A stretch of DNA of 56,089 nucleotides, taken from contig JAZLCV010000207.1 in the NCBI GenBank assembly GCA_045614365.1, positions 1 to 56,089 of the forward strand, in the 5' to 3' direction. The notes beneath the pieces were generated by a model that was not told the origin of the DNA, did not search any database, and was given only the letters and a program-made list of their open reading frames with translations. The position numbers were made by a program, and so were the translations under genes. Origin of the DNA: Eubacteriales bacterium. Lineage in GTDB: Bacteria; Bacillota; Clostridia; Oscillospirales; JAAYXM01. This document shows, in pieces, positions 2-53,820 of the stretch; within the stretch, counting starts at the first letter, position 1; each line of letters starts with the position of its first letter.

Positions 2-697
2 AACACTGCGCTCAAGCACGGTCTTTCCGCAACGCTTATGCCCAAGCCTGTATATGGCGAAGCTGGCAATGGCATGCACGTCCATATTCTCCTTATGAAG
101 GACGGCGAGCCGGTTTTCTCCGATGACAACGGATATTCAAACCTCAGCGAAACCGCGCATTACTTCATCGGCGGACTTCTCAAGCACATCGCATCTCTCT
201 GTGCTATAACAAACCCAAGCACAAACTCCTTCAAGCGCCTTGTTCCCGGCTTTGAAGCACCGGTAACTGTCGGCTATGCAACCTCTAACCGCAGTGCGGT
301 TATCCGCATCCCGGCTTATGCAAAAACGCCGAATCTCCGCCGCTTTGAAATCCGCAATCCTGATGCAACCTGCAACCCGTATTTCTGCTATGCAGCTATT
401 CTTATGGCAGGTCTTGACGGAATAAAGAACAAAATTGACCCGCACACAAACGGCTGGGGTCCGTATGACGTAAACCTCTATAATCTCCCAGAAGAGGAAA
501 AAGCAAAGCTCAAAAGCCTTCCGACCTCGCTTGACGAAGCTCTCGATGCGCTTGAAGCGGATAACGATTACCTCACTGCAGGCGGCGTTTTCCCGAAGGA
601 GCTTATTGCAAACTTCATTAAAACAAAGCGTGAGGAATGCCGCCGTATGGCTGCCATCCCCCACCCCGCAGAATTCGAACAGTATTATAATTTGTAA
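2..697 (+). CDS. glnA: Glutamine synthetase (type I), C-terminal part. The 5' end lies outside the window.
   Basis: The frame is open from the window edge (..KHGLSATLMPKP). The motifs GNGMHVH, NPSTNSFKRLVPGFEAP and SNRSAVIRIP are typical of the GS catalytic domain. The stop is at 695-697. Confidence 0.9.
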   Translation, partial: NTALKHGLSATLMPKPVYGEAGNGMHVHILLMKDGEPVFSDDNGYSNLSETAHYFIGGLLKHIASLCAITNPSTNSFKRLVPGFEAPVTVGYATSNRSAVIRIPAYAKTPNLRRFEIRNPDATCNPYFCYAAILMAGLDGIKNKIDPHTNGWGPYDVNLYNLPEEEKAKLKSLPTSLDEALDALEADNDYLTAGGVFPKELIANFIKTKREECRRMAAIPHPAEFEQYYNL

Positions 698-704
698 AAT
701 GGAT

Positions 705-747
705 CAGAAGTGGCTGTTTCACTCATTTAGTGAGACAGCCACTTCTG
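705..747. terminator. Hairpin between the convergent glnA and DUF4838-like genes.
   Basis: 18-bp stem (cagaagtggctgtttcac / gtgagacagccacttctg, one G-U pair) with a 7-nt loop. A T-rich stretch follows further downstream. Confidence 0.5.
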
Positions 748-766
748 GGATGTTATAGATTCTTTT

Positions 767-2707
767 TTAGAATATAATAGCCCTTGCACCGTCTTTTGAC
801 GCTTCCATGAGATAGTGATTTACCGAATACTTCGAATAATAAATGTTGAAATATTTGCCGTATACGGCACCAATACTCTCACAAATTCGGTTGAACTTTT
901 CCTGATGTTCAACTGATTTTTCATCTTCACCTATGTACTTGGCACAAAATGCGCGTGCAAGCTCTGTAATGTATTCTGTCTGCATACCGAGAAGCTCCCA
1001 TGAAATATGCTGCGCTTTCGGAAGTTCTGCAGAGAGATACTTTTCGATTATGGGTTTAAAGTCATCTACAATACCTTCAACCTTTTCGGCAAAGACCTTT
1101 TGCTCATCACGAGTGCCCTCCGCATCCTTATAGTAGCGATAAACCAAAGAAAAGGCATCTGAAATCTTGCTTAAATATTCAAATGCTTCATCTGCGCCTT
1201 CACCATAGGTTTCTTCGTAGCACTGCTTTTCTTCCGCATAATAGTCAACATTTCTGTTCCAAAGTGTTCGTGCCAAAATTCTGTTGGGGAAATCATTCGG
1301 TATCTGGCAGTTGAATATCTCACAGGATATGTTTCCGCCAAGTCCAAGATTCTTCAGGTTGTACATATCTTCATAAACAACTCTTGAAACATTGCGAAAC
1401 CCCGGATCTCTATACTGATTCCACATGAGGTGATAATCAAAGAGGAAGGAATCGCCTTTGATTTGTTTTTCCTGCCAATCGCGGAGATATACAAGGTTTT
1501 CAGCTGCCGAGACCGGCCAGGTAAGTTTGTTGCGTACATAAGGCGTTTTCTCGGCGGGCTTGTCGAAATCGGAATAGCTTGTATCATATCCTCTCGTAAT
1601 CGGAGCGAACATAAGAATGAATCTGTCGGGATTCTGTACCGTAAACTCCACAGGCTCCCACAAAAGGTCAACGTAAATGAGACATACGACGCGTGACTTG
1701 ATTTTCTCTTCCGTGAGGCGTCTGTCAAGGTCGTTAAGCATCATTACATACCAATCGGACGGTCTGTGCTTCTGGCATTCCTCACACTCACAGTGGTTGT
1801 TGCAGCCGTCAGCAAGCCAGAAATGAAGATAATCCACATCTGTATTTTTCTTGAGATAATCTACAATAGCTTCTACAATTGAATCCCGAACTTTCTGCTG
1901 TGAATAACAGAGCTGGGTCGCCAAAAGTGAGAGCCTGAGACTGCGATACATCTCTCTTTTGCCATTGCGCAGAGCTAATATTGACCTTTGCTCTTCGGTA
2001 AGAGCCTCGTTAGTGGTAATCGCTCTGCACTTTGCCTCATCGTGAAATCCTACTGCCTGTATATGCCAGCCATGTCCGACTCCGTGTCTTTTCAATCCTC
2101 TTTTCTTTGCTTCATGGGTTATAGCTTTGAATGTTGCTTTGCTATCCTCGTCGGTAAAGTTTTCGGCGCTATAATAGCCGATGCAATTATTTTCGGGCTT
2201 AAGCCCTTCTTTGTAATAATTGTTCAGTCCTTCTTTGGGGAACCAATCGATTATATCAATCTGTGTCTGAGTTGAGCCTGATCCGCAAAGGTCCATACCT
2301 CTGAATCGGTAAGAAGCTTTTTCTTCGTAGTCGAAATTAAAGGGTGAAAGAACCTTTTTCTCAATAATCTCACCATCACGACCGGGGCGAATCCATTTGC
2401 ACCCGAGTTTTTTTAAAAGACTGTACACACCAATAAGCACGGATATCGGATTCGTGCCCGCAATCATACCTGCATTGTTATTTATTTTAATGCGGAATGC
2501 ATCATCCATGGAAGGCTCCGGAACTGCTGGTGCAAATGCAGGGTCTGCCATCAGCCAGAGTGCATCCTTGCGCCCCGGATTATATGCGTCATAACAGAAA
2601 ACTTCAACATCAACAGTCTCGTCTATTTTATAAAGGTATCTGCGAAGCTCATCTAACGCAAACTCCACTGTTTCATTAGTGCCAACACGGCAAATTCTTA
2701 TTTGCAT
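767..2707 (-). CDS. Cytoplasmic DUF4838-like glycoside-hydrolase-fold protein (646 aa). The family assignment is tentative.
   Basis: Long ORF with a GAGGAG RBS and no signal peptide. It carries the Cys cluster DGCNNHCECEECQKH and an N-terminal region resembling GH20/GH67-type accessory domains. It is the last gene of cassette 1. Confidence 0.5.
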   Translation of the reverse strand: MQIRICRVGTNETVEFALDELRRYLYKIDETVDVEVFCYDAYNPGRKDALWLMADPAFAPAVPEPSMDDAFRIKINNNAGMIAGTNPISVLIGVYSLLKKLGCKWIRPGRDGEIIEKKVLSPFNFDYEEKASYRFRGMDLCGSGSTQTQIDIIDWFPKEGLNNYYKEGLKPENNCIGYYSAENFTDEDSKATFKAITHEAKKRGLKRHGVGHGWHIQAVGFHDEAKCRAITTNEALTEEQRSILALRNGKREMYRSLRLSLLATQLCYSQQKVRDSIVEAIVDYLKKNTDVDYLHFWLADGCNNHCECEECQKHRPSDWYVMMLNDLDRRLTEEKIKSRVVCLIYVDLLWEPVEFTVQNPDRFILMFAPITRGYDTSYSDFDKPAEKTPYVRNKLTWPVSAAENLVYLRDWQEKQIKGDSFLFDYHLMWNQYRDPGFRNVSRVVYEDMYNLKNLGLGGNISCEIFNCQIPNDFPNRILARTLWNRNVDYYAEEKQCYEETYGEGADEAFEYLSKISDAFSLVYRYYKDAEGTRDEQKVFAEKVEGIVDDFKPIIEKYLSAELPKAQHISWELLGMQTEYITELARAFCAKYIGEDEKSVEHQEKFNRICESIGAVYGKYFNIYYSKYSVNHYLMEASKDGARAIIF

Positions 2708-17120: not shown

Positions 17121-18094
17121 TGTACCTTAAGTACTACCTTACCTATGTTTTCACCACGGTAAAGAATATCGTGTGCCTCTTCAGCTTCTGTAATCGGAAG
17201 AACCTTATATACGGTAGGCTTTATCTCGCCGTTTGCAACCTTTTCCCAAACCTCACTGACAAGCTTTGAGAGGATTTCAGCTTTCATTTGGGGAGTACGT
17301 GAACGAAGCGTGCTGCCAACAATTCTGATGTTCTTTTTGTAAATATTTTTAAGGTTAATGGTTGTGTTCTCTCCTGCAAGAGCCGCAATTACTATCCAAC
17401 GGCATCCATATTTTACATAAGGCAGACAATCCCCAAGATTCTGACCGCCCAGACAGTCGATAGCAATATCAATTGCGCGCCCTGCGAGCTCTTCATTTTT
17501 GAGGACCTCCGGAAGACTTTGCTCCTTCGTGTTTACAACAATATCCGCACCAAGGTGCTTTATATTTTCAGGATCAGTGATAACACTTGTTACAACCCTG
17601 AGACCGAAAGCTTTTGCCATAGGGATGACAACACTGGCAAGTCCGCTTGCTCCTGCCTGCATAAGCAACGTATCTCCAGCTTTAGCATGTCCTTCAACAA
17701 ACAGCTTCAGATATGCAGTTGCAAACGCTTCAGGAATTGCCGCCGCCTCTGCCATGGTGCAGTTTTTCGGCACAGGCATACACATATCATACTTGACAGA
17801 AACAAATTCCGCATAACCGCCACCACCAAGTAGTGCACAAACTTTATCGCCGATTTTGTAATTTGATTTTTCTTTTGCACCATCTGTCATTTCAACAATT
17901 TCGCCTGAAACTTCAAGCCCCATCCATTCCGGACAGCCGGGAGGCGGTGGATAGTCACCCTCTCTTTGCATAAGGTCTGCACGATTCAGGGCCGCATATT
18001 CAACCTTTACCAGAACTTCATCTTCTGAAAGAACAGGATTCGGAACCTCATCCCATCTTAAGCTTTTATCATCGTTTACAAGTATTGCTTTCAT
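17117..18094 (-). CDS. NAD(P)H:quinone oxidoreductase-like medium-chain dehydrogenase/reductase (325 aa).
   Basis: Zeta-crystallin/PIG3-like features: NRADLMQREGDYPPPPG and the GASGLAS nucleotide motif. It is translationally coupled on both sides. Confidence 0.85.
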   Translation of the reverse strand: MKAILVNDDKSLRWDEVPNPVLSEDEVLVKVEYAALNRADLMQREGDYPPPPGCPEWMGLEVSGEIVEMTDGAKEKSNYKIGDKVCALLGGGGYAEFVSVKYDMCMPVPKNCTMAEAAAIPEAFATAYLKLFVEGHAKAGDTLLMQAGASGLASVVIPMAKAFGLRVVTSVITDPENIKHLGADIVVNTKEQSLPEVLKNEELAGRAIDIAIDCLGGQNLGDCLPYVKYGCRWIVIAALAGENTTINLKNIYKKNIRIVGSTLRSRTPQMKAEILSKLVSEVWEKVANGEIKPTVYKVLPITEAEEAHDILYRGENIGKVVLKVQ

Positions 18095-24793: not shown

Positions 24794-25708
24794 CTAATCC
24801 TTAACTGCTTCTATTCGCTGTTTTATGCAACTGATAAGCACCTTTTCATCAGGATTGAATATATGTCCCTTTCTGTATATTAGTATGTCACGGTTTACCT
24901 CTTTACGGTCAACGCATTTTTTGACCACAAGCCCGCCCGCACGGCGTACGTTCTCCGGAATACGTGACATCCACATATATGTTGTATGGACATTGGAAAG
25001 AATATCGCCCTGGCTTGCGCGCTCATACAAATATATACGCTTCGGTGATTTTTTCCGTAACAGCCGTTTTTCTCCGGATGTTCTCTCTTCCATATCTCCG
25101 TGAACAAGCTCTATGTACTCATCAAGCTCGCTTTCATAAATTTCTTCCTTTGATGCAAGCGGGTGCTTTTCCGACATAACGAGAACAGGCTCAAATTCAA
25201 GCAGCGGCTCAAAGTCCAGCCCTCTTTCACGCAGAATGGTCATCATATAATTTTCCGAAACATCTATATATCTTACAACACCGACATGTGCTTCTCCCCC
25301 CGCGACATGCTCAATTGTGCTCTTCGTTCCGAGCTCGCGTATATTAACGGAAATCTGCTTGCGGTCATGCAACGTATTCAGAAAATCGGTAAACGCAAGG
25401 CTTATATATGTCGCACGCGGACCACAGAAGGTCAGGTTTGTTTTTTTTGTTTTCTCAGATGTGTACATAGCATCAAAATTTACTATCTGCTCATATATCA
25501 CGCGCGCATTTGCAAGAAACTCTTCTCCCTCGCGTGTCGGCTTAACGCCCTTTGTTGTTCGTATGAATATTTTTATACCGATTTCTTCCTCAAGCTCCTT
25601 CATTGCTTTACTCAGGTTCGGCTGGCTTAAGAACAGATTCTGAGCTGCTGCCGTCATAGAGCCTGTTTGAGCTATTTCAAGCGCATATTTCATCTGTGTT
25701 GTATTCAT
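24794..25708 (-). CDS. LysR-family transcriptional regulator (304 aa).
   Basis: The start was set at MNTTQMKYALEIAQTGSMTAAAQNLFLSQPNLSKAMKELE (the HTH region). The candidate LysR-type box TTATA-N5-TATAA lies at 25748-25762. Confidence 0.9.
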   Translation of the reverse strand: MNTTQMKYALEIAQTGSMTAAAQNLFLSQPNLSKAMKELEEEIGIKIFIRTTKGVKPTREGEEFLANARVIYEQIVNFDAMYTSEKTKKTNLTFCGPRATYISLAFTDFLNTLHDRKQISVNIRELGTKSTIEHVAGGEAHVGVVRYIDVSENYMMTILRERGLDFEPLLEFEPVLVMSEKHPLASKEEIYESELDEYIELVHGDMEERTSGEKRLLRKKSPKRIYLYERASQGDILSNVHTTYMWMSRIPENVRRAGGLVVKKCVDRKEVNRDILIYRKGHIFNPDEKVLISCIKQRIEAVKD

Positions 25709-25890
25709 ATTGGCATAAAACCTCCAAATAATCGTCATAACTTTAAGTTATACCACCTATAACCATTATATATTTTACAAAGCAAAAAGTCAATGATAAA
25801 ATATAAATGTAATCGTTAAGAACCAAACGTTTACGTTTCACCTTTTTTAAACATAGTTCACCTTCTAATCCCCCTATATATACCATGCAC

Positions 25891-25922
25891 AATAAGACCG
25901 GTACGAAAGTACCGGTCTTATT
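25891..25922 (-). terminator. Hairpin just downstream of the GH30 gene.
   Basis: 14-bp perfect stem aataagaccggtac-gaaa-gtaccggtcttatt. No clear U-tract on the minus strand. Confidence 0.4.
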
Positions 25923-25933
25923 GCATTATTCTT

Positions 25934-48983: not shown

Positions 48984-49069
48984 AATACATCCGCACAGCT
49001 CCGGACAAAGGTGAGAACCCTTGCCCGGAGAAAATTGTATTTTGCAACTTTCAAGCAAATTAAAACATC

Positions 49070-49098
49070 TTGCAAAATATGGGGATTTTTGGTACAAT
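49070..49098 (+). promoter_or_regulatory. Putative sigma-A promoter of prmA.
   Basis: TTGCAA, a 17-nt spacer, then TACAAT with a TG extension (tggTACAAT). Confidence 0.45.
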
Positions 49099-49128
49099 AT
49101 ATAGTAGCAAATATTTGGAGGTTTTTTT

Positions 49129-50088
49129 GTGGAGTGGATTCAGGTAAGTATAGATACAACTCACGAGGGCATTGAGGCGCTGACCTCAGCTCTTGAGGAT
49201 ATCGGCATCCGCGGCTTTGAAATTGAAGATCCGGCGGATTTTTGTGAGTTTATGAATGCGGAATTCCCGTACCGCGACTATGTGGACGATGATCTTGTAA
49301 AAGAAAAAACGGAAGAGAGCGTAAAAGTGAAGATTTACGTCAGCGCAAATCCTGCAGGCCACGAACAGCTTGCCGCTGTGCGCGAGCTTCTTTCTTCCCT
49401 TTCTTCCGATGCATCCTTTGGAAGCCTTGCGCTTTCGTTTGAAACGATGAACGAAGAGGACTGGTCCGAAAACTGGAAACAGTTTTTCCATCCGCTTAAG
49501 ATAGGAAAGCGCGTTCTCGTCCGTCCCGAATGGGAAGAATGCGAGAACACCGACGGCAGAGTGGTATTTACCATAAACCCGGGAATGAGCTTTGGCACAG
49601 GCTCACACGCTACAACCCAGCTGTGCCTTGAAGCGATTGAGGAATACACAAAAGACGGAGACACAATTCTTGACCTTGGTTGCGGAAGCGGTATTCTCTC
49701 AATCACGGCATGCCTTCTCGGCGCAAAAAACGCAGTCGCCTGCGACATTGACAAAAATGCAGTAGATATTGCAATAAGAAATGCAGAGCTTAACGGCGTA
49801 AATCAGGATAAATTTGAGGCTCTTGCAGGAAATATTCTTGATGATGAAACGCTGCGCCGCCGTTTTGAAAACGAAAAGTATGACATCGTTGCAGCCAATA
49901 TCGTTGCAGACGTTATCATCGGCATCAGCCCGTTTGCATCAGGCTTTGTCAAGCCGGGAGGAATATTCATCGCATCCGGCATAATAACAGAGCGCCTTGA
50001 TGAGGTTCTGGAACATCTGAAAAAAAGTTTTAAAATTATTAAAATTTGCGATAAAAACGGCTGGGCATCTGTAATTGCAACGGTTTGA
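49129..50088 (+). CDS. prmA: Ribosomal protein L11 methyltransferase.
   Basis: GTG start after GGAGG. Conserved WxxNWK (WSENWKQFFHP), SFGTGSHATT and the SAM motif LDLGCGSGILS. Confidence 0.9.
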   Translation: MEWIQVSIDTTHEGIEALTSALEDIGIRGFEIEDPADFCEFMNAEFPYRDYVDDDLVKEKTEESVKVKIYVSANPAGHEQLAAVRELLSSLSSDASFGSLALSFETMNEEDWSENWKQFFHPLKIGKRVLVRPEWEECENTDGRVVFTINPGMSFGTGSHATTQLCLEAIEEYTKDGDTILDLGCGSGILSITACLLGAKNAVACDIDKNAVDIAIRNAELNGVNQDKFEALAGNILDDETLRRRFENEKYDIVAANIVADVIIGISPFASGFVKPGGIFIASGIITERLDEVLEHLKKSFKIIKICDKNGWASVIATV

Positions 50089-50161
50089 GGAAAATATTTT
50101 TCCGTATATCGGGCAAACTTAATAAAACAGTACTGGACAAACGACATTTTTTTTGGTAAAA

Positions 50162-50183
50162 TATAACGTATGGCATATGTTAT
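50162..50183 (+). promoter_or_regulatory. Imperfect palindrome related to the 41948 palindrome, at the start of the membrane-protein transcript.
   Basis: tataacgtatggcatatgttat lies directly after a TGGTAAAAT extended -10 (50154-50162). Confidence 0.3.
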
Positions 50184-50215
50184 GCCCTATGAGCTTTATT
50201 TGGGAGTGAACCGGT

Positions 50216-50995
50216 TTGAAAGAGAATAAGTCGCCGAAGGAAGCGGCAATGTACAGAAAAAAAGATTATGTGACAAACAAGCTCCTTCTTGTTTTCACGC
50301 TTGCATTTGCACTTTTGCTTTTGCTTATGAACGTAGGACGTATGATGAAGAGCACGGCAACGTTTATGGCAGCTTACACCGTCGTTAAGGTCGTTGCGGT
50401 TGCCGCTGTGGTGCTTGTCGCCGTGGGAATCGTTATGATGATTGTCGAGCGGTCAAAGAACAAAGATATGAGCTATCATCTCTTCTCGGGGAAGAATGTG
50501 ACGGTTGCATCGGTATTTGTTGCAATCTGCGCCATCGCCCTTTCCCTCGTCTTTTCTCAGAGTATGCTTATGCTTCTTTACATCTTCATCCCCGCAGTTG
50601 TTGTTTTGTATATCATCTATTATTCATATCAGCGCGAATTTTTCCTTATCGCTCTCGCTTCTATCGTCGGCGGTATCGGAATCTGGCTTTTAGGTTCTGA
50701 CCTTGTGAACACAAAAGACGTTCTTGCAATAGCAGGAGCTGCTGCTATTGTCGTTCTCACTGCAGGCTTTGCACTGTGGGCACAACTCGGCAAAGGCACG
50801 GTAAAGCTTTTCGGGCGTGAGTTTGCACCGTTTAAAGGTGATGCACGCTACGGCATCGTATACCTGACATGCCTTTTGGTTCTGATGCTTCTCGCTGCGG
50901 CATTCCTTGCTCCGGACCTTGCAATGTACTTTGTTTTCGCGCTCATTGCATACATCGTTCTCACCGGTGTATACTACACTGTAAAGCTTATTTAA
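50216..50995 (+). CDS. Polytopic membrane protein of unknown function (259 aa, ~7 hydrophobic segments).
   Basis: TTG start after GGGAGTGA (the alternative is the ATG at MYRKKDY). It has repeated hydrophobic helices and no recognisable motif. Confidence 0.6.
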   Translation: MKENKSPKEAAMYRKKDYVTNKLLLVFTLAFALLLLLMNVGRMMKSTATFMAAYTVVKVVAVAAVVLVAVGIVMMIVERSKNKDMSYHLFSGKNVTVASVFVAICAIALSLVFSQSMLMLLYIFIPAVVVLYIIYYSYQREFFLIALASIVGGIGIWLLGSDLVNTKDVLAIAGAAAIVVLTAGFALWAQLGKGTVKLFGREFAPFKGDARYGIVYLTCLLVLMLLAAAFLAPDLAMYFVFALIAYIVLTGVYYTVKLI

Positions 50996-51024
50996 ATTTT
51001 ATTTGAACTTTTACAAAAAAAGGC

Positions 51025-51053
51025 TTGACGTAGACGCATTTTTCATTTATAAT
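51025..51053 (+). promoter_or_regulatory. Consensus sigma-A promoter upstream of tRNA-Ser.
   Basis: TTGACG (51025-51030), a 17-nt spacer, then TATAAT (51048-51053). Confidence 0.6.
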
Positions 51054-51116
51054 ATATCAAGTAAGTCGGTATTCGGCTTGCAGAAAACCGAATACCGATG
51101 ACTTTATTTTCGACTT

Positions 51117-51208
51117 GGAGAAGTACTCAAGCTGGTCGAAGAGGCGCCCCTGCTAAGGGCGTAGGTCGCGAAAGCGGTGCGGGAGTTCGAATCTCCCCTT
51201 CTCCGCCA
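51117..51208 (+). tRNA. tRNA-Ser, anticodon GCU (class II, long variable arm), with encoded CCA.
   Basis: Folded by hand. Acceptor GGAGAAG/CTTCTCC. D stem CTC/GAG. Anticodon stem CGCCC/GGGCG with loop CTGCTAA. Variable arm 19 nt. T arm GGGAG-TTCGAAT-CTCCC. Discriminator G followed by CCA. Confidence 0.95.
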
Positions 51209-51212
51209 AAAA

Positions 51213-51241
51213 CTGACAAGTTTTGACTTGTCAGTTTTTTA
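51213..51241 (+). terminator. Intrinsic terminator after tRNA-Ser.
   Basis: 9-bp stem ctgacaagt-tttg-acttgtcag followed by a T7 run. Confidence 0.75.
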
Positions 51242-51296
51242 CTTTTCGCTTTTCTCTCTTCTCTATTCGTTTTTCACTAAAAGTGTATTTATATGC

Positions 51297-51314
51297 ATCT
51301 CCCCTTCTCTGCCA
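51297..51314 (+). repeat. Copy of the tRNA-Ser 3' end (17/18 identical).
   Basis: atctccccttctcTgcca here versus atctccccttctcCgcca in the tRNA at 51191-51208. Confidence 0.7.
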
Positions 51315-51339
51315 GAAAAAGCTTCATCATTCTCCCCCT

Positions 51340-51383
51340 GAAAAGTTGGCGAAAAGTTGGCAAAAACTTGGCAAAAACTTGGC
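51340..51383 (+). repeat. Four tandem 11-bp iterons.
   Basis: gaaaagttggc gaaaagttggc aaaaacttggc aaaaacttggc. Confidence 0.8.
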
Positions 51384-51547
51384 AAACCAAAAATTATTTT
51401 TGTGTTATAATTTATAACAGTGATGCTTTTGGAGTGAACCTCTATGAATTTGTGCGCGATTTATAAAGGACGCTCCGTGTGCGCAAAGCGTCAGATTTTG
51501 TATTGAAAAAACAATACAAATAAATTATAATAGAAAGGTAAACAACA

Positions 51548-52666
51548 ATGATAACACAAAATTTATTTAACAAAAAGCCAAAAACTTTTATGGACTACAA
51601 GCCGGGTAAGCTGCCAAGCAAAAAAGACCGGGGCTCGCAGACGAAAACTGAAACCAAAACTTATGACCCGTTTGCATCAAATGTAAAAATAGTTGGAGAC
51701 AATGTAACAAAAAAGGACTATGATGCTTTCTTTGAAGGGTTCAATGACCCGTACGGAGAAAAAAGAGAACAAGAACAGCAGCGGAAAGAAAGATTTGCTA
51801 ACATTCGTGCAAACGCCGATAATCGAACTTGGTCTTCTCAGAATACGGACAACCCGTTTCTTGAAGGTTTTAATGGAATTTTAAACGAAAGAGAACAGAA
51901 AGAAAAATTCCCAAACACTCGGTTTCGAACAAAACCTCAAAATGCATACTTGAAATTCCCTAATACACAACTTCATGCGAGCACCAAAAACGATGCATCC
52001 CTCGAAACATTTAGTAATCCCAACGGACAAAAAAATATCGTAGGCGAAGTTGCGTCTGAATGGGGTGAAAATATCGGAGCTCATATAGGTTTGCATAATA
52101 CAGCTCATGATCAATATCCTTGGATGCGGATTGCCGGCCTAACTTCTCCGATAGTTGCAGGAGCAATCGAAAATCGAATAACTTCATCAAGTGCTAAAGT
52201 TTCAAAACATCAGGACATAATAAATGATGTCTCAACTCGTTATAAGGTGCCAAGTGAGATTATCGGAGGAATAATATTTAAAGAGCAATTAACCAAGTCT
52301 CTTCCCGATACCCTTGGAAATATCCACACATCTATAACAAAAGATAGTCATTCTACCGGCTTGGGAGCCATTTTCCCAGCAACAGCAAGAGCTGCGTGGG
52401 GCGAAGTTGACTCTCAAAAAGAATTGCCAAAAACCAATGAGGAGCTTCAATATAAATTAACGCACGATAAACAATTCAACATAGAAACAATTGCCGCAGT
52501 ATTACTGTATGAAGCAAGGAACGAGGGACTTATTTCAGATGTATCCGAAGCTTCAAATTTGACTACCGAGCAATGGTGGAAAGCGATAGCAAAATATAAC
52601 GGTAGCGACGAATATGCGAGAAAAGTGTATGAGTATCTTCCTTATATTACTGAATTGTTAGATTAA
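51548..52666 (+). CDS. Hypothetical protein (372 aa): a charged, disordered N-terminal half and a C-terminal lysozyme-like / SLT-like domain (tentative).
   Basis: No signal peptide. It has internal repeats (FFEGFNDPYGEKRE / FLEGFNGILNERE; KFPNT twice). The C-terminus carries IIFKEQL...STGLGAI...AKYNGSDEYARKV, which resembles the SLT motifs ES...GLMQ...AYNAG. The region is AT-rich. Confidence 0.45.
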   Translation: MITQNLFNKKPKTFMDYKPGKLPSKKDRGSQTKTETKTYDPFASNVKIVGDNVTKKDYDAFFEGFNDPYGEKREQEQQRKERFANIRANADNRTWSSQNTDNPFLEGFNGILNEREQKEKFPNTRFRTKPQNAYLKFPNTQLHASTKNDASLETFSNPNGQKNIVGEVASEWGENIGAHIGLHNTAHDQYPWMRIAGLTSPIVAGAIENRITSSSAKVSKHQDIINDVSTRYKVPSEIIGGIIFKEQLTKSLPDTLGNIHTSITKDSHSTGLGAIFPATARAAWGEVDSQKELPKTNEELQYKLTHDKQFNIETIAAVLLYEARNEGLISDVSEASNLTTEQWWKAIAKYNGSDEYARKVYEYLPYITELLD

Positions 52667-52680
52667 ACGGAGGTGTTTTT

Positions 52681-53307
52681 GTGAAAAAACTCAAAATTCT
52701 AACTTCGATAATCATAGTGATTTCCTGTGTGCTCATTTTATCTTCATGTAAATATAAATATATATTTAAGCATTATAACGAAATAAACGAAGATATTCCC
52801 GACAACCTAACTTCAAGCGCAAGTATGGCAGAATATGCCCGTAATATAGTTGAGAAGGATTGCGGCAAGGAGTTTAATGTAGGTTCTGTCTATATGATTT
52901 TGGATTCGGAGTTAAAGGGAGAAGTGGAAGTTATTTTGGTAGAGAAAAAACAAAAAAAACCGTTGCTGGTCTATGTGGATTTTGATACAAAAAACAACAA
53001 GCTTCTTTCATTCAAGTATGTCAGCTGGCACAGCAAATTGGATCCCGGCGTTATAAATATACATAATTGGGGAATTGACTATGCAGAGGCAATTGAAATT
53101 TCAAAGGAGCTTCATTCAAAAACAGATGGTTTCCGATATGACGATGTCATAATCAGGACCGATAATTCTCATCCGTTTGAAGACGAAGATTGGGAAGTTT
53201 GGTCCGTAGCGTTTCGTGACTACCAAAGCAAAAAAAACTACGACACCCGCATTGAACCGTATACAGGAGAGATTCTTAATCACGGTATTTGGAAATGGGT
53301 AGGATAA
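52681..53307 (+). CDS. Hypothetical lipoprotein (208 aa).
   Basis: GTG start after GGAGGTG. Signal peptide with lipobox (VISCVLILSSC-KY). It is tightly linked to the upstream gene. Confidence 0.6.
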   Translation: MKKLKILTSIIIVISCVLILSSCKYKYIFKHYNEINEDIPDNLTSSASMAEYARNIVEKDCGKEFNVGSVYMILDSELKGEVEVILVEKKQKKPLLVYVDFDTKNNKLLSFKYVSWHSKLDPGVINIHNWGIDYAEAIEISKELHSKTDGFRYDDVIIRTDNSHPFEDEDWEVWSVAFRDYQSKKNYDTRIEPYTGEILNHGIWKWVG

Positions 53308-53360
53308 TACAGATTGGATTCAGTATGGCATTGACTTTGCAAATTCAGGGAGGGGAACTT

Positions 53361-53504
53361 ATGAAGAAACATTTTCTCATTAATGTTGCGAAAGATATAA
53401 AGCAGACTATACCAATTTTAGTGCTTATTACATTTGTGATGCTGTATCTTGCTTTGTCGACGCAAGATAGTTTGTGGGTTCGCGTCTTTGAATATTATAA
53501 GTAA
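53361..53504 (+). CDS. Small single-pass membrane protein (47 aa), hypothetical.
   Basis: ATG after GGGAGGGG. One hydrophobic helix (TIPILVLITFVMLYLAL). Confidence 0.35.
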   Translation: MKKHFLINVAKDIKQTIPILVLITFVMLYLALSTQDSLWVRVFEYYK

Positions 53505-53611
53505 TCCGGCTCGAAGCATAAACAAGAAACAGTGAACCCAACCACATTGCGAAATCAATTAAGCAATTAAATTTAATCCAGCCGAAGAATGTGTGCATAT
53601 GAGTGGCAGAG

Positions 53612-53625
53612 CTCCTTCTCCGCCA
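53612..53625 (+). repeat. Distal copy of the tRNA-Ser 3' end (att-like).
   Basis: ctccttctccgcca versus ccccttctccgcca in the tRNA. The last 12 nt are identical. A terminator follows immediately, as it does at the real tRNA. Confidence 0.55.
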
Positions 53626-53627
53626 GG

Positions 53628-53665
53628 AAAACCGTTAACTTTGATAGAAAGTTAACGGTTTTTTC
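53628..53665 (+). terminator. Intrinsic terminator following the distal tRNA-end copy.
   Basis: 13-bp stem aaaaccgttaact / agttaacggtttt with a 9-nt loop and a T-run. Confidence 0.7.
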
Positions 53666-53820
53666 AATGAAATACGCCTTTCGACGTGTGAAATAGCTTC
53701 GCTGTGAAATATTTGCTTCGCAAATGTTAAAGGCGTATTTCATTTCGCAGAAAGCGTCAGATTTCTATTTCACAATTTACGCAGTAAATTATTTCGCTAC
53801 CAGACAAGTCATCCGCACAC

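Follow-up and report, generated by a model that had tools for sequence, protein, structure and literature searches.

A Small Recombinase-less Islet at the 3' End of a tRNA-Ser(GCU) Gene in a Gut Clostridia Genome: Probable Tandem Cassettes Bounded by a Conserved Recombination Half-Site

Introduction

The genomic islands at the ssrA gene of Dehalococcoides carry a conserved 15-bp motif upstream of their direct repeat that does not match the RNA gene; they encode a CcrB-like serine recombinase, DsiB, on the reverse strand beside attL, are found in tandem and in some cases lack integration genes (PMC3146451). Cis-mobilizable elements (CIMEs) and their accretion have been described for the ICESt1/CIME elements of Streptococcus thermophilus and the tRNA-Lys composite island of S. 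agalactiae, among others (PMC5704250). This study examined a comparable locus in a 56,089-nt contig of an uncultured Eubacteriales bacterium (JAZLCV010000207.1, assembly GCA_045614365.1), the whole of which is referred to as the window. An original prediction, made from the DNA alone, had described an AT-rich islet without an integrase gene after tRNA-Ser(GCU) and interpreted it as the footprint of integration into the tRNA 3' end. From the results presented here, positions 51209-53625 are likely to be a tandem pair of recombinase-less cassettes that were site-specifically integrated at this 3' end and that belong to a serine-recombinase element family, being either decayed or mobilizable in trans in a CIME-like manner. 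An islet of this kind is already known and the present one is a well-documented example; the signature of its arm and site is new.

Materials and Methods

The source genome is a metagenome-assembled genome (MAG), 82% complete, with an assembly of 2.1 Mb; the relatives compared with it (G and contig numbers) are, by name, uncultured Oscillospiraceae or Eubacteriales from herbivore guts. Transfer RNAs were called with ARAGORN and Rfam, and protein domains with Pfam, NCBIfam and PHROGs. The chance expectation for the core repeat was obtained from shuffles of the window, allowing at most one mismatch. The arm pattern TGYRCAYAYNNNTGGCNNNGYTCYTTCTCCGCCA was searched as exact matches in a collection of species-representative genomes, in metagenome contigs and in viral contigs. 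The C-terminal domain of the toxin was modeled with AlphaFold2 and the model was compared using Foldseek. Two Logan contigs, L139 and L140, were retrieved by exact-protein look-up of open reading frame (ORF) 2; the same look-up with the membrane protein upstream of the tRNA gave a sole match, a contig that stops short of the tRNA.

Results and Discussion

Repeats, Terminators and Gene Content of the Islet

The last 12 nt of tRNA-Ser(GCU), the core CCTTCTCCGCCA, recur exactly at the distal boundary of the islet (53614-53625) and with one mismatch at 51303-51314. Overall, four matches with at most one mismatch are present in the window vs. 0.11 expected by chance, and zero shuffles attained four. 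The predicted repetition of the longer, 18-nt tRNA end (51191-51208) at 51297-51314 with 17 of 18 identities was confirmed, as was its return at the distal boundary, where 12 nt are exact. Taken at a greater length, the repeat family comprises 51191-51212, 51297-51318 (91% identity) and 53608-53629 (73%), and the bases 5' of the 12-nt core in the distal copy belong to a separately conserved 22-nt arm and not to a tRNA. The middle core, degenerate in the window, is intact in the two Logan contigs, which are 98% identical to it. Among the isoacceptors examined, tRNA-Ser GCU, UGA and CGA have the complete 12-nt core and GGA has TCCTTCTCCGCCA; this sharing of the core, or at least of TCCTTCTCCGCCA, explains how one unit can be found at different tRNA-Ser genes.

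The intrinsic terminators predicted after the first and last copies are both present as perfect hairpins (14 and 15 bp) with T runs. A consensus terminator scan detected the first only, and the second was detected as an inverted repeat (Table 1). The islet has a GC content of 0.374 vs. 0.430 for the window and approximately 0.456 for the flanking genes, and only 8 of the 269 sliding 2.4-kb windows are lower. Its cargo is, as predicted, three small AT-rich genes, and their three ORFs gave no recombinase, excisionase or replication domain with Pfam, NCBIfam or PHROGs, which again agrees with the original prediction.

Table 1. Features of the islet and its borders (positions in the window)
Feature	Coordinates	Strand	Description	Remarks
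tRNA-Ser(GCU)	51117-51208	+	ARAGORN; Rfam tRNA, 52.8 bits	probable integration target (attB left half and core)
Core copy 1	51197-51208	+	CCTTCTCCGCCA	last 12 nt of tRNA-Ser(GCU)
Terminator A	51208-51239		14-bp perfect hairpin, then T run
A-mini	51209-51296	+	terminator A, CT-rich tract, then ...aaaagtgtatttatatgc	recurs core-bounded in relatives
Middle pseudo-tRNA end	51297-51314	+	17/18 identity with tRNA end	degenerate core CCTTCTCTGCCA
Promoter block	51341-51411	+	four phased 11-nt AAAANTTGGCA repeats (51341-51384) and extended -10 TGTTATAAT (51403-51411)
ORF1	51548-52666	+	372 aa, polymorphic toxin (predicted)	N-terminal domain aa 1 to ~110; C-terminal domain aa ~185-372
ORF2	52681-53307	+	208-aa lipoprotein, lipobox LSSC	candidate immunity protein
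ORF3	53361-53504	+	47-aa single-pass membrane protein	translation
P arm and core copy 3	53592-53625	+	TGTGCATA-tgag-TGGCAGAG-CT-CCTTCTCCGCCA	conserved recombination half-site
Terminator B	53628-53662	+	15-bp perfect hairpin, then T run	inverted repeat I14
Gut-1-RNA-like element and weaker inverted copy	53665-53799			between islet and SNF transporter gene

Exchange of DNA at the Core among Relatives

The flanks of the islet, a membrane-protein gene and the tRNA on the left and an SNF transporter gene on the right, are common to four species at 86-91% identity, and the cargo between them differs among the close relatives G009, G001 and G011. In G009 the same islet occurs at 93% identity, with a different first mini-unit and a toxin gene broken into separate ORFs; its place is taken in G001 by a tandem of two other toxin cassettes and in G011 by a cassette of 1 kb that encodes no toxin and has an arm and core of its own. 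An impression from a BLAST summary that G011 represents an empty site was rejected, as this different cassette occupies the position.

When G000, G001, G009, G011 and G017 are compared, different left flanks are joined to different right flanks, and the switch falls precisely at the core. Terminator A is preceded by the genuine tRNA in the window, by the arm gtggcagagct in G001 and by a pseudo-tRNA arm in G017, terminator D is preceded by the arm gtggcaacgct in both G001 and G011, and terminator F follows the tRNA in G001 and the distal copy in G009. These exchanges support the predicted site-specific integration at the tRNA 3' end. Among more distant species of the same genus, the tRNA is directly followed by a conserved terminator X (gtccgtacac...gtgtacggac) in G002, G016, G014 and G006. 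In G012, the tRNA is followed by the mini-cassette A-mini (approximately 100 nt), then by TTCTCCGCCA and then by the native terminator X; A-mini has been inserted cleanly here and has displaced the tRNA end. In G016, the order is the tRNA, terminator X with a toxin cassette and arm, the core, and terminator X with a second cassette; the tandem toxin cassettes of G016 and G001 each close with an arm and a core.

The two Logan contigs are 98.3% identical to the window over 51190-53717, but what precedes the first core in them is unrelated to the window's tRNA. In L140 this left side (1-95) is a pseudo-tRNA mini-cassette of the G009/G017 type, and in L139 it is an arm resembling the end of tRNA-Ser(GGA). 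Since the contigs are nearly identical and differ to the left of the core, the core junction changed recently. Both contain one copy of the 11-nt TTGGCA repeat vs. four in the window. The proposed search for other copies of the islet was successful in G009 and the Logan contigs, but its own genome yielded no second copy, only partial paralogs of the promoter, the N-terminus and the small ORF. As a separate observation, the mini-cassette of G009 (L021 2780-2960), G017 (L023) and L140 contains a decayed tRNA-Ser 3' half (gcgaaagcggcgcgg...) and a reverse-strand fragment resembling a tRNA T-arm (ggtgagggagattcgaactc).

The same diversity could be read as a set of old, immobile integration scars, with the differences arising from homologous recombination between conserved cassette ends (the promoter and N-terminal coding region, the small-ORF region and the tRNA flank) and from interspecies transfer of the whole locus. 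In favor of this reading are the approximately 400 nt of promoter and toxin N-terminus that are kept at 70-90% identity among many loci, the distal small-ORF region common to the window and G001, the mutated middle core, the split toxin gene of G009 and the poor right half-sites of the window. However, the breakpoints fall exactly at the 10-12-nt core and not within the long homologies, even between 98%-identical strains, and one mini-cassette is found at different tRNA-Ser isoacceptor genes; this explanation is therefore considered quite unlikely. Transposon readings (a miniature inverted-repeat transposable element or an IS200/IS605-like element) were rejected because terminal inverted repeats are lacking and because the breakpoints act like a fixed site.

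The Mini-Cassette A-mini

The first unit (51209-51296 together with the pseudo-end 51297-51314) reads ...aaaagtgtatttatat... after terminator A and the CT-rich tract, and it recurs at several tRNA-Ser genes. Bounded by cores, it lies at tRNA-Ser(GCU) in G012 and forms the second unit of both G001 and G017; at tRNA-Ser(UGA) in G011:C9 it has the attR of an element with an integrase gene on one side and the native terminator on the other, and at tRNA-Ser(GGA) in G050 it comes after an 11.7-kb island. In G004, only its left part is present and the distal core is absent. The suggestion of two successive integration events gains support from these data, as the unit of approximately 100 nt is a recurrent mini-cassette with a precise insertion in G012.

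Similar arrangements were observed elsewhere. In the own genome, tRNA-Ser(UGA) at C16:300-545 (-) has its last ~25 nt repeated in degenerate form 147 nt downstream, together with the same terminator, in the manner of a mini-cassette, and C16-like duplication pairs are found at tRNA-Ser(GGA) in G049, G050 and G052. At C120:~2000-2230 (-), the last tRNA of a cluster, by eye tRNA-Cys(GCA), is followed by a terminator and an A-mini-like CT-rich tract and, further on, by ...tatatgcatct, the 3' end of that tRNA in degenerate form and another terminator.

A Conserved Arm and a Putative 46-bp Recombination Site

In seven arm-and-core sites of the genus, approximately 22 nt upstream of the core are common and nothing beyond them is. 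The pattern TGYRCAYAYNNNTGGCNNNGYTCYTTCTCCGCCA was found exactly at 23 loci of the genome collection, all in gut Clostridia MAGs, and in 3 short metagenome contigs; the arm as an attP on phages was sought with two patterns and gave 0 viral-contig matches. Combined, the 34-nt arm and core are kept in 28 distinct sites (the 23 genome-collection loci, the 3 metagenome contigs and the window), but the DNA further upstream is not. Over these 28 sites the consensus reads TTGTGCAtATGagTGGCAg.GCTCCTTCTCCGCCA; an A-rich stretch comes next, and then a variable hairpin.

L124 and L137 have CCA-nnnn-TATGCACA on the right side, a mirror of the left outer motif, and thereby complete a 46-bp palindrome: TGTGCATA-4-TGGCAGAG-CTC/CTT-CTCCGCCA-4-TATGCACA. 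The layout is an outer 8 nt, a spacer of 4, an inner 8, the center CTC/CTT, and then an inner 8, a spacer of 4 and an outer 8. A search with TTCTCCGCCANNNNTRTGCACA found approximately 19 genuine tRNA-Ser(GCU) genes of other Clostridia that are followed by nnnn-TATGCACA. Because these genes are naturally trailed by the right outer motif, the tRNA end and the DNA downstream of it form a ready-made right half-site. The identity of the site with the tRNA begins at the central CC, and a 12-nt repeat that starts at the center of symmetry is expected if this is where strands are exchanged and if attP and attB have similar right half-sites; the crossover may lie in the central CC or CCTT region. The site has the features of large serine recombinase sites, namely a 40-50-bp quasi-palindrome, a central dinucleotide, and an identity between attP and attB that covers the center and one side.

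These findings modify the earlier view that attR is the displaced tRNA end with its terminator. The bases upstream of the distal core are the element's own half-site and terminator B is not the ancestral terminator of the genus. The distal 34-nt motif with its hairpin might also be a dispersed 3'-end RNA or terminator module that is unrelated to integration and resembles the tRNA by chance or function, in line with the several MAGs in which the motif follows ordinary genes with no tRNA within 5-7 kb and with the terminator that always follows it. On contigs that are long enough, however, a same-strand tRNA-Ser lies upstream (11.7 kb in G050, 40.6 kb in G053, 1-4.4 kb in the genus), the mirror image of the motif lies downstream of genuine tRNA-Ser genes, and Rfam gave no match at the 34-nt motif; such a module is thus very improbable.

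Search for the Acting Recombinase

The original prediction had proposed searching the genome for an integrase tied to the same att core, and in the window's own genome this search came back empty. Its two serine recombinases, one large (C125) and one small resolvase (C176), are not linked to the site. No PF00589 (Phage_integrase) match was found in the assembly, so even Xer is missing from it, probably as the result of an assembly gap; most relatives have a conserved neighboring pair of ~300- and ~345-aa tyrosine recombinases, which we take to be XerC/D-like.

Recombinases at the conserved site were found in other genera. Reverse-strand C-terminal fragments follow the arm sites of L123 and L125 and resemble large serine recombinases, which was confirmed by homology for L123 and judged by eye for L125; in L123, a 60%-identical recombinase remnant lies directly after the arm and core. 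The L123 fragment led to G053 (L145), in which tRNA-Ser(GCU) is followed by a similar terminator and an intact recombinase of 505 aa, composed of Resolvase, Recombinase and Zn_ribbon_recom domains, and the next same-strand core, 40.6 kb downstream, is preceded by the arm variant TTGTGTACATGAGATGCAATGCT and followed by a terminator. Additionally, L210 and L221 encode 53-55%-identical recombinases approximately 1.1-1.3 kb after a tRNA-Ser(GCU) core or pseudo-end core. More distant homologs (31-33%) abut tRNA-Leu 3' ends. The site is therefore well linked to this recombinase family as a whole, and the window's own genome lacks such a link. A tRNA target seems unusual for large serine recombinases.

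A different enzyme would be at work if a tRNA-Ser-specific tyrosine integrase, encoded on an integrative and conjugative element (ICE) or prophage elsewhere in the cell, acted in trans on the acceptor-end core, as in classical CIME accretion. Tyrosine integrases of ~320-400 aa do lie directly beside tRNA-Ser(CGA) in G016:C56 and tRNA-Ser(UGA) in G011:C145, another lies beside TTCTCCGCCA in G048:C4, A-mini is positioned just outside the attR of the G011 element, and the inner inverted repeat of the palindrome, TGGCAGAG-CTCCTT-CTCCGCCA (8-6-8), is similar to the core sites of tyrosine recombinases. However, no tyrosine integrase is near any examined arm site on the same contig, serine recombinases are found at the expected position, and the two-tier palindrome of 46 bp fits serine-recombinase sites better than tyrosine ones. 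The G011 element itself was rejected as a source, because its attR holds 58 nt of tRNA-Ser(UGA) instead of the conserved arm. Overall, a tyrosine integrase acting in trans is regarded as unlikely.

The Toxin Cassette

The second unit of the islet is a toxin cassette that spans 51315-53625. Its promoter block belongs to an architecture of phased AAAANTTGGCA arrays (2-8 repeats) with an extended -10 that is present at at least eight loci of the own genome, including C4:~17608-17629(-), C19:3673-3738, C58:2820-2841, C163:3882-3903, C184:~2250-2330(-), C196:720-752(-) and C212:3707-3728. It precedes a paralogous toxin gene (C184), endolysin-type amidase genes (C4, C196) and an unidentified gene (C163) and, by eye, phage major capsid genes (C19, C58) and an operon of small and large terminase and portal genes (C212). 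An architecture common to toxins and phage-derived genes suggests one regulon that links them. A role of the TTGGCA repeats as arm-type or iteron sites was rejected, as the block is found at at least eight unrelated loci and strains carry anywhere from 1 to 4 copies of the repeat.

The N-terminal domain of ORF1 is multicopy in 15 of the 19 genomes of the genus; the family has at least 23 members with at least six unrelated C-termini. No Pfam family matched this domain, and ORF1 has no signal peptide or known secretion-system marker. For the C-terminal domain, the Pfam match to SLT_2 is weak (3e-6); its AlphaFold2 model has a pLDDT (predicted local distance difference test) score of 93.9, and the top Foldseek matches are MltE, the type VI secretion system muramidase Tse3 and g-type (goose) lysozymes (query TM score, TMq, 0.43-0.60; E ~1e-2). 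The Glu of the conserved KEQ motif in this domain is invariant, and the domain is elsewhere fused to RHS, MuF and PG_binding_1 domains. MuF-fused phage toxins exist among polymorphic toxins. Together with the modeled fold, these data indicate that ORF1 is a polymorphic toxin with a lysozyme- or lytic-transglycosylase-like C-terminal domain and is predicted to degrade the cell wall.

ORF2 gave a PepSY match that was weak and below the cut-off and has no homology to a known immunity protein; sequence searches of ORF1 and ORF2 against PDB and PHROGs returned nothing useful. ORF2 accompanies ORF1 in G009 as well as in Logan/ENA contigs and is likely the candidate immunity protein to ORF1, and its lipoprotein nature is as expected for protection from a wall-degrading enzyme. 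A segment homologous to ORF3 is found at the end of the second G001 cassette and on contig C51 of the own genome.

Among the other toxin copies, direct repeats were found only around that of C184. At C184:~300-2430 (-), a 300-aa paralogous toxin and a downstream 256-aa protein, ankyrin-repeat-like by eye, lie between two copies (37 nt, 81% identical) of the 3' end of an apparent Gfo/Idh/MocA oxidoreductase gene, with a terminator after each copy; this is the insertion architecture of the islet at a protein-gene target. At G004:C28:20410-24330 (L092/L164), the cassette of a paralogous toxin was found 2-3 kb upstream of a large serine recombinase (585 aa) encoded on the other strand. This recombinase has 34% identity to that of G053, and nothing resembling a core was found between it and the cassette.

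Proposed Assembly of the Locus

In the proposed mechanism, recombination would take place at a two-tier palindromic site of about 46 bp, of which the left half, TGTGCATA-nnnn-TGGCAGAG, would be borne by the element and the right half would be formed by the tRNA acceptor end CTCCGCCA and the DNA downstream of it. The 12-nt repeat would then represent the central CC and the 10 nt of the common right half-site. Each integration would spare the tRNA, bring in a new terminator and displace the earlier cassettes distally, which would yield the present order of tRNA, A-mini, toxin cassette and terminator B. The enzyme would most likely be a large serine recombinase, encoded on the reverse strand beside the tRNA in autonomous relatives. 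The cargo would be a polymorphic toxin-immunity module under a phased-TTGGCA promoter. An islet that lost its recombinase or never had one would be a decayed remnant or an element moved in trans, and this alternative from the original prediction is kept as the best reading, refined to a serine-recombinase element family.

Several observations weigh against this reading. In the suggested comparison of the tRNA locus among relatives, more distant species have the tRNA directly before the native terminator, but no truly empty site was found in the closest clade, which shows replacement of cargo instead. No excised or circular form was observed, and a circular junction is indistinguishable from a tandem junction. 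A recombinase of the G053 family was not found in the own genome at its 82% completeness; the only large serine recombinase there (C125) is 27% identical, adjoins a sigma-factor-like gene and is probably of the sigK-element type. Matches to the recombinase in the closest clade (G009, G001 and G011) reach at most 33% identity, and the best homolog in the genus (G002:C21, 54%) is not beside a tRNA in the available sequence. The tyrosine integrases beside tRNA-Ser(UGA) and tRNA-Ser(CGA) in relatives also belong here. The left arm of A-mini differs from the conserved arm, and A-mini may therefore belong to another element family. Finally, the TATGCACA outer motif is missing from the right half-sites of the window (CCA-aaaa-CTGACAAG and CCA-ggaa-AACCGTTA), and there is the mutated middle core; the sites may have ceased to be substrates, and the islet may be immobile today.

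A broader and tentative reading, which we hold to be rather unlikely, is that the tRNA-Ser 3' ends of gut Oscillospiraceae and related Clostridia serve as an integron-like docking platform, at which miniature cassettes are still inserted, excised and swapped in trans by a tRNA-Ser-specific large serine recombinase of larger elements. Apart from a terminator, the cassettes would then contain no more than a promoter of the phage-late type, a toxin-immunity pair and a single half-site of 22 nt, and strains would trade their repertoire of antibacterial toxins one cassette at a time.

The locus resolves base by base how small accessory modules build up at a tRNA gene in uncultured gut Clostridia. 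The 34-46-nt signature is searchable and marks island ends in gut Clostridia MAGs that are invisible to integrase-based island finders. Additionally, it is tied to a large serine recombinase family with a natural tRNA-Ser target, and enzymes of this type whose sites are defined can serve as tools for integration. The cargo adds a leaderless family of predicted cell-wall-degrading toxins at recombination hot spots, with a content that varies among related species.

Additional Observations

Rfam placed a Gut-1 RNA (RF01706) at 53665-53736 (+) with 46.7 bits, below the gathering threshold of 50, and a further match at 53732-53799 (-) with 21.4 bits. A full-scoring Gut-1 (72.7 bits) directly follows tRNA-Ser(GCU) and terminator C in G011 (L020 3217-3288), and Gut-1-like segments are multicopy in the genomes of relatives. 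Upstream of the tRNA, Logan contig L138, which comes from another sample (98.5-98.8% identity to window positions 25098-25930 and 49055-51079), joins position 25930 directly to 49055, and another strain may therefore lack the intervening ~23 kb or have it rearranged.

Comparison with Known Systems

As in tRNA-targeted islands, a distal repeat of the tRNA 3' end is present and the content varies between conserved flanks with breakpoints at the repeat; an internal recombinase, as such islands have, is not among the three ORFs, which lack a recombinase domain. By analogy only, the islet can be likened to integron cassettes and to Xer-dependent modules (integrative mobile elements exploiting Xer, IMEX, and pdif modules), which are short modules, without a promoter or a recombinase, that are bounded by recombination sites, stacked, and served by a recombinase encoded elsewhere. 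It differs from them in that there is no IntI gene (and no PF00589 match in the own genome) and no folded site of the attC type, in that its site is unlike dif, and in its target, which is a tRNA 3' end.

The cargo shares with polymorphic toxin systems a conserved N-terminus, interchangeable C-terminal toxin domains and a small cognate gene that follows. It differs in the N-terminus of ORF1, which is without a Pfam family, and in a promoter of the type found at phage-like late operons.

With CIMEs, the islet shares cores at both ends (attL and attR retained, with the conserved arm at the distal one), the lack of integration and transfer genes, tandem units at the 3' end of a target gene and arrays built through repeated site-specific integration. 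Autonomous relatives at the same att site are also available (G053, L210, L221), although in other genera and not in the window's genome. However, the streptococcal cases rely on tyrosine integrases and are decayed ICEs or integrative and mobilizable elements, whereas the att architecture and autonomous relatives described here point to a large serine recombinase; the units are also very small (0.1 and 2.3 kb) with a polymorphic toxin cargo, and their cis-mobilization is putative.

In its structure, the islet matches the ssrA islands of Dehalococcoides most closely. The latter differ in having a tmRNA target, a 20-bp repeat, reductive dehalogenase cargo and a host from another phylum, whereas the present sites are at tRNA-Ser genes with a common 12-nt acceptor end and the units in the window are without any integration module. 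Common to both are tandem islands that follow a small stable-RNA gene, a short direct repeat of the 3' end of that gene and a conserved motif just upstream of the repeat.

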